A stretch of 64,000 nucleotides of DNA from an uncultured Pseudomonadales bacterium (lineage in GTDB: Bacteria > Patescibacteriota > Microgenomatia > UBA1400 > MFAQ01). This document shows positions 5,912-53,887 of this stretch, one piece after another. Below the pieces are notes generated by a model that was given only the letters and a program-made list of their open reading frames with translations, was not told the origin of the DNA and made no database searches. The position numbers and the translations under genes were made by a program. The stretch covers positions 1,031 to 65,030 of the forward strand of contig CAYHNG010000005.1 in the NCBI GenBank assembly GCA_964357975.1, in the 5' to 3' direction. The number at the start of each line of letters is the position of its first letter. Within the stretch, counting starts at the first letter, position 1.

Positions 5912-6674
5912 ATTTTTTCATTGAATGATTCCACAGGGAAAAGGCCAATAAATTTAAAGTTATGCCCCAGAAAATGCCGATAGCAAAATCCAGGCCCACT
6001 CCATTTAGGGCCAGAGTGCTACTGAGTGAGTTGGCCGGTAGATAGACCATTCCGGGAAAGGGAGAGAAACGGAGAATTTCTTTGAGTGGTGAGGGGAACA
6101 TGTAAAGAGGGACCATGGTACCGGTAAAGATACGGATGAAGTTTTGAATTGAGTTTCTAATTCCGAAAGCGTCGGTAAAGTGTAAGAAAAGCGTTCCTTC
6201 AAGAATGTTGTAAGCAAAAGAGATGGCCCAAGAGTTGACTAGAAATAACAGAAAAATCAAGAGTGACACGGGAGTCTTTGGGGGCATGAGAGAGAGACCA
6301 ATAATAATGTTGATAAGAGCAAGAATCAATCTCATGCCGTTTCTGCCAAGAGAAATAGCATAGAGCGTAGGAATCAACTTTGTGGGTTTAATAATATAGT
6401 TGCTGATCTGGCCTGACTTGATTTGATTACCAATCAGACTGCTCAAGGCACCCCAGCGGGACATAGTAAGATCGGCTACACCCATAGCGATCAAAAAATA
6501 GGCGGTAATTTGAGAGAGAGAAACGGAGATTCCGGAACTCTTGATATAAATGGACCAGAAAAGAACGAGAAAAACTATTTCCACGATTCTTTTGAGGACA
6601 GTGGCGATTATTTCAAAAGGATAGGCAAAGAAGCGCAAAAAACTAAACCTGATGATATCAAAATAGACGGTCAC
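5892..6674 (-). CDS. ABC-2 family transporter permease (second subunit)
   Basis: Multi-TM protein. Overlaps the preceding permease by 20 nt. Same operon. Confidence 0.6.
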   Translation of the reverse strand: MTVYFDIIRFSFLRFFAYPFEIIATVLKRIVEIVFLVLFWSIYIKSSGISVSLSQITAYFLIAMGVADLTMSRWGALSSLIGNQIKSGQISNYIIKPTKLIPTLYAISLGRNGMRLILALINIIIGLSLMPPKTPVSLLIFLLFLVNSWAISFAYNILEGTLFLHFTDAFGIRNSIQNFIRIFTGTMVPLYMFPSPLKEILRFSPFPGMVYLPANSLSSTLALNGVGLDFAIGIFWGITLNLLAFSLWNHSMKKYEAIGI

Positions 6675-8527: not shown

Positions 8528-9475
8528 GTGGCTAAAAAGGAAGTAAACGATTTGGGGCTTAGAGTGTTGATAAGAAGATATTTAAGCTTTATTGAAGTAG
8601 AAAAAAATTATTCCAAATTTACGATTCGCAACTACTCTCACTATCTTGGGATGTTTCGCAAATGGTTTGAGAAACATTATGAACAGGAATATATTGAAAA
8701 GCTGACGAGCGAAATGGTCCGGAAGTACCGCTTGTTCTTAGCTAGATATGAGACAAAGGAAGGTAAACGGCTCTCTCCCACTACTCAAAGCTACTATGTG
8801 ATTGCGCTGAGAGCCTTTTTGAAATATTGTGCCAAAAGAGGCGTCAAGACTTTGTCGGCCGAGAAGGTAGATTTACCCAAACCGGGTGAGCATCAAATAA
8901 AGTTTTTGGATAGAGAGCAGGTGGAAAGACTGCTCATGGCTCCAGACACGTCGAACATTAGCGGGCTAAGAGATCGGACCATTTTAGAAGTACTGTTTAG
9001 TACCGGTTTGCGGGTTTCGGAACTAGCTAAATTGGATATCGACAAAATAGATTTAAAGGAAAGAGAGTTTGGGATCTTGGGTAAGGGAAGAAGAATGAGG
9101 TTGGTGTTTTTGTCGGAACGCGCGACGCAGTGGTTGGGTAGATATCTATCTGCCAGGACAGACCCATTCAGAGCTCTGTGGGTGCGCATTCCTAAAGGTG
9201 GTGACTGGGATCCGAGTATGGGTAACGAAAAAGCCAGACTGTCGATTCGAGGAATTCAGAGAATTGTGGAAAAATATCGAAGGTTGGCCGGACTGCCGAT
9301 AAAAGTTAGTCCGCACGTTTTGCGGCATAGTTTTGCTACTACCCTTCTTCAACAAGGCGCAGACCTGCGTAGTGTGCAAGAAATGTTGGGTCACAAAAAC
9401 GTGGCCACGACCCAGATATACACTCACGTCACTAACCCCCAACTCAAACAGATCCACGACAAATTTTTGAAATAA
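8528..9475 (+). CDS. tyrosine recombinase XerC/XerD-like (site-specific integrase)
   Basis: C-terminal catalytic region HVLRHSFATTLLQQGADLRSVQEMLGHKNVATTQIYTHV (R..H..R..Y motifs). N-terminal SAM-like core-binding domain. GTG start. Confidence 0.85.
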   Translation: MAKKEVNDLGLRVLIRRYLSFIEVEKNYSKFTIRNYSHYLGMFRKWFEKHYEQEYIEKLTSEMVRKYRLFLARYETKEGKRLSPTTQSYYVIALRAFLKYCAKRGVKTLSAEKVDLPKPGEHQIKFLDREQVERLLMAPDTSNISGLRDRTILEVLFSTGLRVSELAKLDIDKIDLKEREFGILGKGRRMRLVFLSERATQWLGRYLSARTDPFRALWVRIPKGGDWDPSMGNEKARLSIRGIQRIVEKYRRLAGLPIKVSPHVLRHSFATTLLQQGADLRSVQEMLGHKNVATTQIYTHVTNPQLKQIHDKFLK

Positions 9476-44658: not shown

Positions 44659-45339
44659 ATGCCACAGAAGAATAGTCGTAAAGAATACGGTGCCGGTGGT
44701 CACTATCACGTTTATAACCGTGGGGTAAACAAGAGTTCGATATTTTTAGACGAACAGGATTTTAAGGTTTTTCTTGGGTACTTAAAACTGTATCTTGAAC
44801 CACCTAACCTGCAGGGCCAGGCCCTGCAGGATGAGAATGGAAGAACAATCCCTCCTTCAAAGGAACCTAAGAACTATATGGGTGAGATTGAGTTATTGGC
44901 ATATTGTCTAATGCCTAACCATTTTCATTTGCTCATTAAACAAAATACCGATAGAGGTATTGCTGAGTTTATGCAGTCTTTAATTCAGAGATATGTGATG
45001 TATTTTAATAAAAAATATATGAGAGTGGGAGGACTTTTCCAAAGTAGGTATAAATCGGTTTTAATTGAGGATGAAAACCAATTTGTGTATATCACTAAAT
45101 ATATCCATCGAAATCCGATCGATATTTTACCTGCAAAACTTGGCACTGCAGGATATGAAGTTTATCGATATTCTTCGTATGGGAATTATCTCGGTTTGTT
45201 TCAACAGCGATGGGTTCGGCCGGAGCAGATTCTTTCATATTTTTCCAATATGAAAGAAGGAAGTACTTATCAAAGCTTTGTAGAGAATACGGTGTCAGAC
45301 GATTTAACTAAAGTATATTACGAGATGATGGATAATTGA
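44659..45339 (+). CDS. IS200-like / REP-associated tyrosine (Y1 HUH) transposase, paralog 2
   Basis: MPQKNSRKEYGAGGHYHVYNRG..., HUH MPNHFHLL, RYK...YIHRNP. 226 aa. Roughly three-quarters identical to the 18650 paralog, by eye. Confidence 0.8.
   Translation: MPQKNSRKEYGAGGHYHVYNRGVNKSSIFLDEQDFKVFLGYLKLYLEPPNLQGQALQDENGRTIPPSKEPKNYMGEIELLAYCLMPNHFHLLIKQNTDRGIAEFMQSLIQRYVMYFNKKYMRVGGLFQSRYKSVLIEDENQFVYITKYIHRNPIDILPAKLGTAGYEVYRYSSYGNYLGLFQQRWVRPEQILSYFSNMKEGSTYQSFVENTVSDDLTKVYYEMMDN
44808..44830. repeat. 23-bp perfect palindrome inside RAYT-2 CDS (encodes LQGQAL)
   Basis: CCTGCAGGGCCAGGCCCTGCAGG, in frame. Confidence 0.9.
45130..45152. repeat. degenerate internal palindrome in RAYT-2 CDS
   Basis: CCTGCAaaacttggcacTGCAGG keeps the 6-bp outer arms at the position homologous to the second internal palindrome of paralog 1. 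Confidence 0.6.
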
Positions 45340-50369: not shown

Positions 50370-50407
50370 TTTTTGATTGATGATTTGTATAGTTCCCCGC
50401 ATGCGCG
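50370..50407 (-). promoter_or_regulatory. conserved GC-rich promoter-associated motif upstream of infC (copy 1)
   Basis: Minus strand TTGTCATCCTCGCGCATGCGGGGAACTATACAAATC. Near-identical copy upstream of tRNA-Arg at 53712-53747. Confidence 0.4.
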
Positions 50408-50470
50408 AGGATGACAAGTACGTCAATTTTACTATATTTTCAGCCACAAAAGAGGCGGTGATTGTTGGTA

Positions 50471-50924: not shown

Positions 50925-50947
50925 CAAAAAAATCACCCTGATGGTGA
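50925..50947 (-). terminator. intrinsic terminator after the tRNA-Val 3'-fragment
   Basis: Minus strand ATCACC-atcag-GGTGAT followed by TTTTTTT. Confidence 0.5.
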
Positions 50948-50957
50948 TGTTTTCTTG

Positions 50958-51002
50958 TGGGCCCGACTGGACTCCCTCGAGTAGCTTCGCTCTCTCGGAC
51001 CC
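50958..51002 (-). pseudogene. tRNA-like minihelix / tRNA-Val 3'-end remnant
   Basis: Minus strand GGGTCCG-agagagcgaagct-ACTCG-agggagt-CCAGT-CGGGCCC-A forms a 7-bp acceptor plus a T-arm-like stem. Last 20 nt identical to the tRNA-Val 3' end (50955-50974 = 51095-51114). Confidence 0.45.
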
Positions 51003-51068
51003 GTCTCGGCAGGTTCGTTACGAAACTGCCTCCGACATTCGATTCCATTAGCGTAGTAATATAAAAAC

Positions 51069-51093
51069 TCCTCCACAAGGGAGGACCTTTTAT
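51069..51093 (-). terminator. intrinsic terminator immediately after tRNA-Val
   Basis: Minus strand GGTCCTCC-cttgt-GGAGGAG followed by TTTTTAT. Confidence 0.55.
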
Positions 51094-51097
51094 ATTG

Positions 51098-51171
51098 TGG
51101 GCCCGACTGGACTCGAACCAGTGACCTCTGCAATGTCAATGCAGCGCTCTAGCCAGCTGAGCTACGAGCCC
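51098..51171 (-). tRNA. tRNA-Val (anticodon GAC)
   Basis: Hand fold gives acceptor GGGCTCG/CGGGCCC, D arm GCTC/GAGC, anticodon stem CTGCA/TGCAG with loop TTGACAT, T arm ACTGG-TTCGAGT-CCAGT, discriminator A. No CCA encoded. Confidence 0.85.
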
Positions 51172-51180
51172 GAAATTTTA

Positions 51181-51250
51181 TTATTTGATGAGCGCTTCTA
51201 GCCTCAGCCGTAGGCTGATCCGCCTTTGGAGGAAGCTGAGCTACGAGCCC
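51181..51250 (-). pseudogene. tRNA-Val 5'-fragment (acceptor + D arm) with about 28-nt insertion
   Basis: Minus strand GGGCTCGTAGCTCAGCT[tcctccaaaggcggatcagcctac]GGCTGAGGCTAGAAGCGCT. The first 16-17 nt are identical to tRNA-Val positions 1-17. No anticodon or T arm follows. Confidence 0.45.
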
Positions 51251-52704: not shown

Positions 52705-52785
52705 GCCGAGGTGGCGAAATGGTAGACGCACTAGCTTTAGGAGCTAGCGGGGCAACCCATGGAGGTTCAAGTCCTCTCCTCGGCA
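52705..52785 (+). tRNA. tRNA-Leu (anticodon TAG)
   Basis: Acceptor GCCGAGG/CCTCGGC, 3-bp D stem, anticodon loop TTTAGGA, long variable arm, T arm GGAGG-TTCAAGT-CCTCT. Confidence 0.85.
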
Positions 52786-52790
52786 CCGAA

Positions 52791-53420: not shown

Positions 53421-53465
53421 AAGCTAATTTACTGTGGCAGAAATAAGCGACGATGTCAAGAAAAG

Positions 53466-53486
53466 GTGCACCAAGAGGGAGTCGAA
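53466..53486 (-). repeat. 21-nt duplicate of the tRNA-Arg 3' end
   Basis: GTGCACCAAGAGGGAGTCGAA at 53466-53486 is identical to 53609-53629 (T-loop through discriminator of tRNA-Arg). Confidence 0.8.
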
Positions 53487-53571
53487 GTCTTCGGTAACAT
53501 CTGCTGATGTTCCTCAGACCGCGCCTCAGCGCCGGTCGCGCTTCCGGCAGGTTCTCCTCCCGCGAGTTTAC

Positions 53572-53599
53572 AAACAAAAATCTCCCGACAAGCGAGAGA
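53572..53599 (-). terminator. intrinsic terminator after tRNA-Arg; same hairpin as at 46136
   Basis: Minus strand ATCTCTCGCTTGTCGGGAGA followed by TTTTTG. Confidence 0.5.
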
Positions 53600-53609
53600 T
53601 TTTGGTTTG

Positions 53610-53683
53610 TGCACCAAGAGGGAGTCGAACCCCCAACCGACAGCTTCGAAGGCTGGCGCTCTATCCAGTTGAGCTATTGGTGC
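53610..53683 (-). tRNA. tRNA-Arg (anticodon TCG)
   Basis: Acceptor GCACCAA/TTGGTGC, D arm GCTC/GAGC, anticodon loop CTTCGAA (U33, A37), T arm GGGGG-TTCGACT-CCCTC. Confidence 0.8.
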
Positions 53684-53711: not shown

Positions 53712-53747
53712 GATTGTTATAGATCCCCGCCTACGCGAGGATGACAA
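53712..53747 (-). promoter_or_regulatory. conserved GC-rich promoter-associated motif upstream of tRNA-Arg (copy 2)
   Basis: Minus strand TTGTCATCCTCGCGTAGGCGGGGATCTATAACAATC, about 85% identical to the infC-upstream copy. Confidence 0.4.
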
Positions 53748-53787: not shown

Positions 53788-53861
53788 GGGTCAGTAGCTC
53801 AGTTGGTTAGAGCACCTGCCTCTTAAGTAGGGTGTCGCGGGTTCGAGTCCCGCCTGACCCA
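53788..53861 (+). tRNA. tRNA-Lys (anticodon CTT)
   Basis: Acceptor GGGTCAG/CTGACCC, D arm GCTC/GAGC, anticodon loop CTCTTAA, T arm GCGGG-TTCGAGT-CCCGC. CC encoded after the discriminator. Confidence 0.8.
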
Positions 53862-53887
53862 CCCCTTATCGTATATATTAGATAGTA

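Follow-up and report, generated by a model that had tools for sequence, protein, structure and literature searches.

Gene-less units that repeat the end of the adjacent gene: a family at tRNA, tmRNA and protein-coding genes in Patescibacteria

Why should two tRNA genes in one 64-kb stretch of bacterial DNA each be followed, a little over 100 bp downstream, by a second copy of their own 3' end? The stretch, part of contig CAYHNG010000005.1 and called the window below, contains four tRNA genes as called with ARAGORN. Two of these, tRNA-Leu(tag) (52705-52787, + strand) and tRNA-Lys(ctt) (53788-53863, + strand), have no such copy. The other two, tRNA-Arg(tcg) and tRNA-Val(gac), are the window loci of this study. 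The 21-mer that closes tRNA-Arg, GTGCACCAAGAGGGAGTCGAA, occurs exactly twice in the window (143 bp from start to start), as does the 18-mer that closes tRNA-Val, GTGGGCCCGACTGGACTC (140 bp). Both repeats are exact copies of the tRNA's own segment from the T-loop to the 3' end, and exact 18-21-mers at such a spacing exclude chance. A preliminary description of this sequence had come to the same view, and the duplicate of the last 21 nt of tRNA-Arg, the intrinsic terminator between the copies and the homology of the elements behind the two tRNAs, each ending in its tRNA's own 3' terminus, are all borne out here. Its figure of 123 bp for the Arg spacing needs correction. The Arg gap is 122 bp, and 123 is the gap between the Val copies. 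No open reading frame (ORF) fits the 122-bp spacers.

On the minus strand the order at each locus is tRNA, terminator hairpin with a T-run, short AT-rich spacer, antisense arm (A), a core of two hairpins (C, comprising P2 and P3) and the sense copy of the gene end (S). The antisense arm is 10-12 nt long and is the reverse complement of the T-loop and the 3' strand of the T-stem of its own tRNA. In the predicted fold A pairs with S as helix P1, which closes a three-way junction, and in Arg units the boundary between core and downstream copy coincides exactly with the point where P3 and P1 meet. A covariance model (R1) was used to search for the family; its structure was assigned manually after RNAalifold, given a MAFFT alignment, had returned P2 only. 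R1 recognises both spacers, scoring the Arg unit at 61.4 bits and the Val unit at 31.8 bits (E-value 6e-7). Even with its filters off, R1 detected no unit in the window beyond the two already known. A nearly identical copy of the Val core occurs at one comparison locus (L007), and the orthologue at another (L005) is partly deleted.

Table 1. Features of the Arg and Val units in the window
Feature	Position	Strand	Basis and remarks
tRNA-Arg(tcg)	53609..53683	-	ARAGORN; Rfam tRNA, 66 bits; upstream ("left") copy is the last 21 nt, 53609-53629, from T-loop to one base beyond the discriminator base
Terminator-like hairpin and T-run, Arg unit	53577..53603	-	Inside the insert; missing from empty sites L004 and L007
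Antisense arm A, Arg unit: GGGAGGAGAAC	53551..53561	-	Imperfect reverse complement of T-loop/T-stem GTTCGACTCCC; 5' strand of P1; ideal arm GGGAGTCGAAC
Hairpin P2, Arg unit	53522..53549	-	Outer stem UGCC/GGCG, conserved internal loop GGA/GA, inner stem AGCGC/GCGCU, loop GACCG; single-sequence fold and R1
Hairpin P3, Arg unit	53487..53519	-	Lower stem GUCU/AGAC, tandem G.A/A.G, 2 bp, bulged A, 5-bp upper stem, loop CAGCAG; fold and R1
Downstream ("right") copy, Arg unit	53466..53486	-	First 12 nt are the 3' strand of P1; TTGACA promoter directly after
tRNA-Val(gac)	51097..51171	-	ARAGORN, Rfam; upstream copy is the last 18 nt, 51097-51114
Terminator-like hairpin, Val unit	51069..51085	-	Extended stem ~51058-51096
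Antisense arm A, Val unit: AATGGAATCGAA	51038..51049	-	Ideal arm ACTGGACTCGAA; R1 alignment
Core, Val unit	50975..51036	-	P2 51003-51036: GUC-GGA-[GGCAG..CUGCC]-GA-GAC, CGUAACG in loop region; short P3 ~50975-51000, loop GAA
Downstream copy of Val 3' end: GAGTCCAGTCGGGCCCAC	50957..50974	-	Repeat search
Second terminator, after Val copy	50932..50948	-	Homologous to the terminator directly behind tRNA-Val in L007

The two spacers also share a 10-mer, CGGCAGGTTC, found in the window only at 51007 and 53545 (~0.1 expected by simple arithmetic). It had been taken, in the form GGAGG...GAACCTGCCG, for a homologous segment of the two elements, a proposal contradicted by the R1 alignment, in which its two occurrences fall at structurally non-equivalent positions. 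The Arg 10-mer takes in the final part of the antisense arm together with the junction and the outer P2 stem's 5' strand; the Val 10-mer consists of the end of the hairpin loop and the 3' strand of the inner P2 stem. On the predicted structure, the shared 10-mer is a coincidence of register and not a homologous segment.

Both units belong to a large family. The window itself comes from a Candidatus Collierbacteria (Microgenomates) of Hainich groundwater. The comparison loci are trigger-factor neighbourhoods fetched from other genomes, supplemented by metagenome contigs in which a pattern scan listed at least 120 loci (loci are cited by L numbers). In relatives, a first script located repeats of the gene's own 3' terminus behind tRNA genes for Arg, Val, Lys, Leu, Gly and His, at a distance of 116-138 nt, and at loci outside the relatives' group its sole match was a low-complexity false positive. 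With R1, 30 copies were found in Microgenomates genome loci, 38-53 nt past a tRNA on the same strand wherever this could be called (26 directly so). The metagenome loci gave at least 111 and at least 99 matches in two overlapping sets of 100 loci, corresponding to at least about 100-110 further copies and, for the family beyond the window, a total of at least about 130. Units occur behind at least 29 tRNA anticodon types, nearly every tRNA type. A lack of 3'-end duplicates at any other tRNA would have spoken against a family of tRNA-linked elements as first proposed; instead, 26 of 104 tRNAs in relatives carry a unit, versus none of 103 in the other fetched genomes. The ends of tRNA genes are indeed targets, although not exclusively. 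The same core lies behind the tmRNA gene in L248, L205 and L260 (among the matches listed), behind the rplL stop codon in at least seven contigs, and at further protein-gene 3' ends.

Exact protein look-ups assign unit-bearing contigs to Nomurabacteria/Parcubacteria, Paceibacterota and "Patescibacteria group", and within this sample the family is confined to Patescibacteria (Microgenomates and Parcubacteria). In Rfam 15, the window region and eight unit-bearing loci gave only tRNAs and spurious matches overlapping tRNAs (E-values up to 5 and up to 1). Two pattern scans of viral contigs yielded 72 loci with three weak R1 matches, none with a tRNA nearby; the best two are one and the same sequence, in GC-rich, coding-like DNA. 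Phage and plasmid collections contained no meaningful match to the core, and full-text literature searches returned no description of such units. The family is apparently undescribed.

The fold is under constraint. In single-sequence folding, 24 of 28 members adopt the same three-way junction as their minimum-energy structure. Among 31 distinct sequences from genome loci, 91.6% of pair positions are paired compared with 27-45% in register-shift controls, 27 of the 30 pairs show compensatory changes, and none of 500 shuffles reaches the observed score. The 91 distinct sequences from metagenome loci show 92.4% pairing (controls 36-45%), compensatory changes at 29 of 30 pairs and again no shuffle in 500 that reaches the score; P2 is 97-99% and P3 94-97% paired in this set. 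Pairing is to be read as somewhat inflated, and sequence conservation as inflated, because both alignments were fitted to the model and the metagenome set was selected by pattern. The genome set was gathered without a pattern and agrees with it. Across the family P2 retains an asymmetric internal loop, GGA opposite GA, and P3 retains tandem G.A pairs and a bulged A. One pair in P3 is G.U in 45 of 91 sequences, the commonest state at that position. A frequent G.U would be an A.C mismatch on the opposite strand, so it is the tRNA-sense strand that folds, either as RNA or as single-stranded DNA. Compared by eye, the conserved positions fit none of the known ribozymes and motifs considered: hammerhead, k-turn, box C/D, group I and II introns, T-box, retron, diversity-generating retroelement and bridge RNA.

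Several features indicate that the units are insertions. At two comparison loci (L004 and L007) tRNA-Arg directly abuts the TTGACA promoter of a gene for a 209-aa protein. At the window locus and L006 the two are separated by terminator, A, C and the copy, and it is the same promoter that follows the copy. Since the terminator is missing from both empty sites, it belongs to the inserted DNA. A tRNA-Lys gene in the same position is likewise empty in L005 and filled in L009. Units also occur in tandem arrays, two in L008 and three in L016, with similar arrays in L238, L187, L219 and L231. The spacing of the repeats is bimodal, 108-118 nt for units without a terminator, which lie in tRNA operons, and 133-161 nt for those with one. 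Decay is seen as well: the orthologue of the window Val unit in L005 is internally deleted and its copy has degenerated, and a Leu unit in L013 retains only terminator and copy. Of 30 downstream copies behind genes that encode CCA, 28 include it; of 30 behind genes that do not, none does. The copy is therefore derived from DNA and not from mature tRNA.

The rplL units, together with the antisense arms, bear on which of the two copies is new. At rplL the order is gene end, antisense arm, core, and a second copy of the last 4-6 codons with the stop. The arm is perfectly complementary to the upstream gene end and forms a terminator with a T-run. Between the two copies there are 30 nucleotide differences in 29 codons, of which 27 are synonymous (stop-to-stop changes counted as synonymous). 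Such synonymous divergence implies that both copies evolved as real gene ends, in different lineages. The array in L231 reads S0-A1-C1-S1-A2-C2-S2, where A1 corresponds to S0 and A2 to S1; S2 and S0 are almost the same sequence. Among 40 cases at tRNA loci in which the copies differ, the arm is the better match to the left copy in 35 and to the right copy in 2. Averaged over the family, 10.0 of 12 arm positions match the cognate tRNA and 8.2 match non-cognate tRNAs. Synonymous changes at rplL are not biased towards keeping G.U pairing of the arm with the downstream copy: 5 are compatible with it and 6 are incompatible. The most economical interpretation has S-A-C as the incoming unit, which would supply a new gene end and push the resident one aside, as integrative elements do. 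The Arg downstream copy is accordingly read as a displaced resident gene end, and the second terminator, behind the Val copy, as the one resident at tRNA-Val, probably displaced along with the old end. Target-site duplication of the casposase or Cas1 type was rejected as the main model, as the rplL copies differ synonymously and S0 in L231 resembles S2 and not S1. An IS91 target (GTTC) fails at the rplL sites.

Two loci carry the core downstream of protein genes other than rplL (L161 4316-4395 and L263 830-915). In L161 a diverged repeat of ~40 nt of the gene end is present, and P1 pairs without a mismatch over 18 bp.

Some units enclose other genes. In L249 the order is tRNA-Gln, a small unit, an exact 21-nt copy, a 6.6-kb block, A-C, an exact copy and a further unit, the exact 21-nt repeats being 6.7 kb apart. 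The block encodes a type III methylase (Mod), an abortive infection (Abi) protein, an unknown protein and a type III restriction subunit (Res); no recombinase or integrase fragment is among the encoded proteins of this island. A pilin-like gene lies between copies in L250, and methylase, restriction and phage-like genes occur upstream of other A-C-S ends (e.g. L237, L270). The small unit behind tRNA-Gln (L249 388-537) has the same layout of tRNA end, terminator, antisense arm, core and copy, with a core that bears no relation to that modelled in R1. Further core families are likely.

From these observations the favoured reading, held with moderate confidence, is a ~140-bp gene-less insert in the 3' part of the tRNA gene that carries a replacement gene end, comparable to an integrative element or integron cassette lacking its own recombinase. 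The insert would comprise S, a new T-loop-to-3'-end copy that completes a working tRNA, followed by the terminator, A (the first 10-12 nt of S inverted) and the 65-75-nt core. The resident gene end would be pushed downstream and would be the duplicate first noticed. Integron attC sites and the phage CTX attP are known to fold in order to present a site to a recombinase encoded elsewhere. An antisense arm has no evident use in double-stranded DNA; on a single strand A and S rebuild the target duplex. The unit may move as S-A-C by recombination at S, with A and S of a folded strand, probably single-stranded DNA, mimicking the double-stranded target of a recombinase encoded elsewhere and P3 stacked beside the P1 duplex. 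For genes co-oriented with replication, it is the sense strand that serves as lagging-strand template and is transiently single-stranded. Alternatively, integration could be driven by homology after DNA uptake, with no dedicated enzyme, in which case the conserved gene would serve as one homology arm and the 15-21-nt downstream copy as the other. Re-matching of the arm to a new gene may occur by template-switch correction of imperfect palindromes, as one possibility.

A more specific version of the insertion reading is put forward tentatively. Units could be cassettes that depend on a recombinase acting in trans: small S-A-C circles, with or without cargo such as restriction-modification (RM) or Abi genes, would fold as single strands, their two arms restoring a duplex of a conserved gene's 3' end, and would splice into that gene and replace its end. 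Such a system would be integron-like, with any conserved terminus as its "attI" and exchangeable arms that set the target.

A number of points weigh against insertion as outlined above. Unit-bearing and empty tRNA-Arg alleles are distributed patchily relative to the trigger-factor tree, which implies that presence and absence partly reflect exchange of whole loci or precise loss between the repeats. Some units in tRNA operons have no terminator and must be transcribed, which keeps a role for the RNA in view, and the conserved G.U fits RNA at least as well as single-stranded DNA. In L213 two cores (6050-6136 and 6434-6520), one behind tRNA-Leu(gag) and the other behind tRNA-Leu(cag) at a distance of 384 nt, are 100% identical; each is followed by the 3' end of its own tRNA including CCA, and the spacers to their left differ. 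This arrangement suggests gene conversion or very recent copying, and would fit gene conversion or a mobile A-C unit better than a recent S-A-C insertion. The origin of new target specificities is not accounted for by the insertion model, and an excised or circular form has never been seen. Finally, no recombinase is linked to any unit. The window does encode a Xer-type tyrosine recombinase (8528-9475, + strand; XerC/D-type, with Phage_integrase and SAM-like domains), for which a link to the repeats had been raised as a point to check. However, the gene is 45 kb away and has no tRNA-end copy near it.

The best-surviving alternative, although a doubtful one, is a structured small RNA with a cellular job such as tRNA maturation, quality control or protein binding, transcribed with or after the tRNA. 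P1 would then make use of local tRNA sequence, and the units would spread passively by recombination. The strong covariation and the conserved G.U on the sense strand are what such an RNA would show, as are the fixed orientation and distance relative to the tRNA and the copies in operons without terminators. The two conserved G.A-type internal loops resemble protein-binding motifs, and ~25% of tRNAs in related genomes have a unit. However, most units lie behind a terminator, with no convincing promoter by eye in the listed spacers and none listed for the window units. Orthologous copies decay (Val in L005, Leu in L013), and close relatives lack a unit at the same tRNA. At rplL it is the upstream gene end, and not the 3' strand of the RNA itself, to which the arm is perfectly complementary. 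Cargo between repeats and tandem arrays would also be left unaccounted for.

It is unlikely that the units are attR-like right ends left by integrase-encoding prophages or islands at tRNA genes after loss of the interior. Direct repeats of partial tRNAs and successive integrations are typical of such elements (bioRxiv 10.1101/2020.12.28.424599), and the methylase, RM and phage-like genes upstream of A-C-S ends in L237 and L270 would suit them. Remnants should be ragged, whereas unit size is tightly bimodal, and the same ORF-less layout recurs at 29 or more tRNA types, tmRNA and protein genes. Covariation in the hairpins is also unexpected for arm-type binding sites, which are double-stranded. 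No unit contains an integrase fragment, nor does the L249 island, and viral contigs and phage and plasmid collections gave no true match. The constant unit size and covarying fold likewise speak against decayed large integrative elements, one of the two origins first suggested for the repeats. The other, a tRNA-primed element, is contradicted by the absence of CCA from all 30 downstream copies whose gene lacks it.

That same absence of non-encoded CCA (0 of 30) makes it highly improbable that the core RNA was copied with the 3' part of mature tRNA and the resulting complementary DNA inserted. The copy does begin in the T-loop, and reverse transcriptases are common in these lineages, but the ends of rplL and other protein genes are copied in like manner, and selected neighbouring ORFs scanned against Pfam revealed no reverse-transcriptase gene beside the examined units. 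Least credible of all is an intervening sequence that sits in the T-loop and is excised from RNA, or a plain tandem tRNA pseudogene: the core does lie inside a tRNA-Gln T-arm in L229 and L230, and the downstream Val copy can form an acceptor-like stem, but these two loci are disrupted tRNA-Gln pseudogenes (the L229 copy lacks the 5' acceptor strand), removal of the unit in silico at hits without an upstream tRNA restored a tRNA by ARAGORN in none of 45 cases (positive control 22 of 25), upstream tRNAs are intact without splicing, and the core is unrelated to tRNA.

Structured, gene-less units that take up roughly one in four of the tRNA genes sampled in this genome's relatives, and that can enclose defence genes, would represent a major, so far unannotated component of these genomes. 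If the folded arms set the target, they would constitute a new way of choosing an integration site. Patescibacteria have tiny genomes and few recognised mobile elements, and their gene exchange is poorly understood. The units also yield partial tRNA copies, extra terminators and repeats that affect tRNA annotation, assembly and island prediction. R1 provides a direct means of mapping them.

Other tRNA-associated arrangements were seen at these loci. The tRNA-Arg(tcg) allele of the window is shared with L006 (82% trigger-factor identity, unit present) and differs in the anticodon stem and T-stem from that of L004 (89% identity, empty). Judging from these alleles, whole tRNA loci seem to have been exchanged between lineages. 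On the minus strand at 51172-51250, and also in L005, the first 17 nt of tRNA-Val stand behind the original promoter and are followed by a 30-nt insert and a continuation of the D-arm, GGCTAGAAGCGCT. The intact tRNA-Val lies 79 nt downstream of this 17-nt first copy. L006 and L007 show nothing of the kind. What is seen resembles an earlier copy of tRNA-Val that has been broken up in its D-loop and shortened, and may be a 5'-side counterpart of the 3' units. In L014 (1-720) a tRNA-Arg(tct) has a 22-nt copy of its 5' end 189 nt upstream and a partial copy interrupted in the D-loop downstream; both inserts start with ACAGCTT(A/G)CTC and represent another kind of tRNA-disrupting insert. ORFs rich in Cys (CxxC...CxxC) lie directly behind tRNA genes in L009 (~1-1160), L026 (~2700-2816) and L029 (~8550-8800), and their sequences resemble homing-endonuclease or Endo VII-type zinc-ribbon proteins. 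The window also contains exactly two copies, where none would be expected, of a palindromic repeat of ~36-44 nt (TTGTCATCCTCGCG..GCGGGGA.CTATA.AA), similar to repetitive extragenic palindromes (REP) or miniature inverted-repeat transposable elements. One (50382-50417) is in the infC 5' leader and the other (53712-53747) between the tRNA-Arg and tRNA-Lys promoters, and relatives lack the repeat at both sites. Its sequence differs from that of the units.

How do the units compare with known systems? Like REP/REPIN sequences and other miniatures mobilised by Y1 transposases (REP-associated tyrosine transposases, RAYT), they are short, ORF-less, hairpin-forming and multi-copy. However, REP/REPIN elements do not carry a copy of the adjacent gene's end, whereas the units, also when set beside PATE/REPIN elements derived from IS200/IS605, have a 15-21-nt gene-end repeat in addition to hairpins. 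A 226-aa Y1_Tnp protein, IS200- or RAYT-like, is encoded in the window (44659-45339, + strand) between genes for a penicillin-binding protein and a HAD hydrolase; no unit copy was found near it by R1. A guide RNA, whether the homing spacer of a CRISPR-associated transposon or an omega RNA, was considered and rejected, as the "guide" would be sequestered by its own antisense arm. No genes of RNA-guided transposons or nucleases (cas12k, tnpB, tns) were seen next to units.

The nearest published pattern is that of integrase elements such as tycheposons, which leave partial-tRNA repeats (bioRxiv 10.1101/2020.12.28.424599). Integrase elements at tRNA and tmRNA genes, like the units, insert in the 3' part of the gene, supply a replacement end and leave the resident end downstream as a direct repeat; repeated integrations push older ones outward, and defence genes are carried as cargo. 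The units conform to an integrative element in that a direct repeat of the tRNA 3' part flanks the insert and relatives have empty sites. They differ in that neither the spacers nor the L249 island contains a tyrosine or serine recombinase of its own. At 110-160 bp and without ORFs, units have no integrase even where cargo is present. They have in addition an inverted repeat copy and a covarying two-hairpin core, and they use protein-gene ends as readily as tRNA ends.

Phage CTX, with its folded attP, and integrative mobile elements exploiting Xer (IMEX) provide a precedent for the proposed fold, in that two inverted target copies on one strand form a mimic of the duplex. Their recombinase is host-encoded and acts in trans. 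The target of the units is not dif, and any involvement of Xer or of a single-stranded DNA intermediate in their case would be hypothetical.

Integron cassettes offer a further comparison. The arms of the units lack RYYYAAC/GTTRRRY and are instead tRNA- or gene-specific and 10-21 nt long (e.g. GGGACTCGAA / TTCGAGTCCC), with no GTT in the rplL arms. The unit core is a three-way junction, and unit arrays start at tRNA, tmRNA and rplL gene ends and not at an attI beside intI; in the arrays looked at, where part of the neighbouring ORFs was scanned, no integrase ORF was seen. In other respects the two are alike. Cassettes carry no recombinase, many are ORF-less, they are stacked in arrays, and they end in inverted arms that fold as single strands. 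The units, too, are ORF-less, form arrays and have at their 3' end imperfect inverted repeats that fold on one strand, as in attC. Moreover, a single integron cassette contributes both the arm on the left side of its cargo and the inverted arm on the right side, and the antisense arm of the units likewise matches the left copy.

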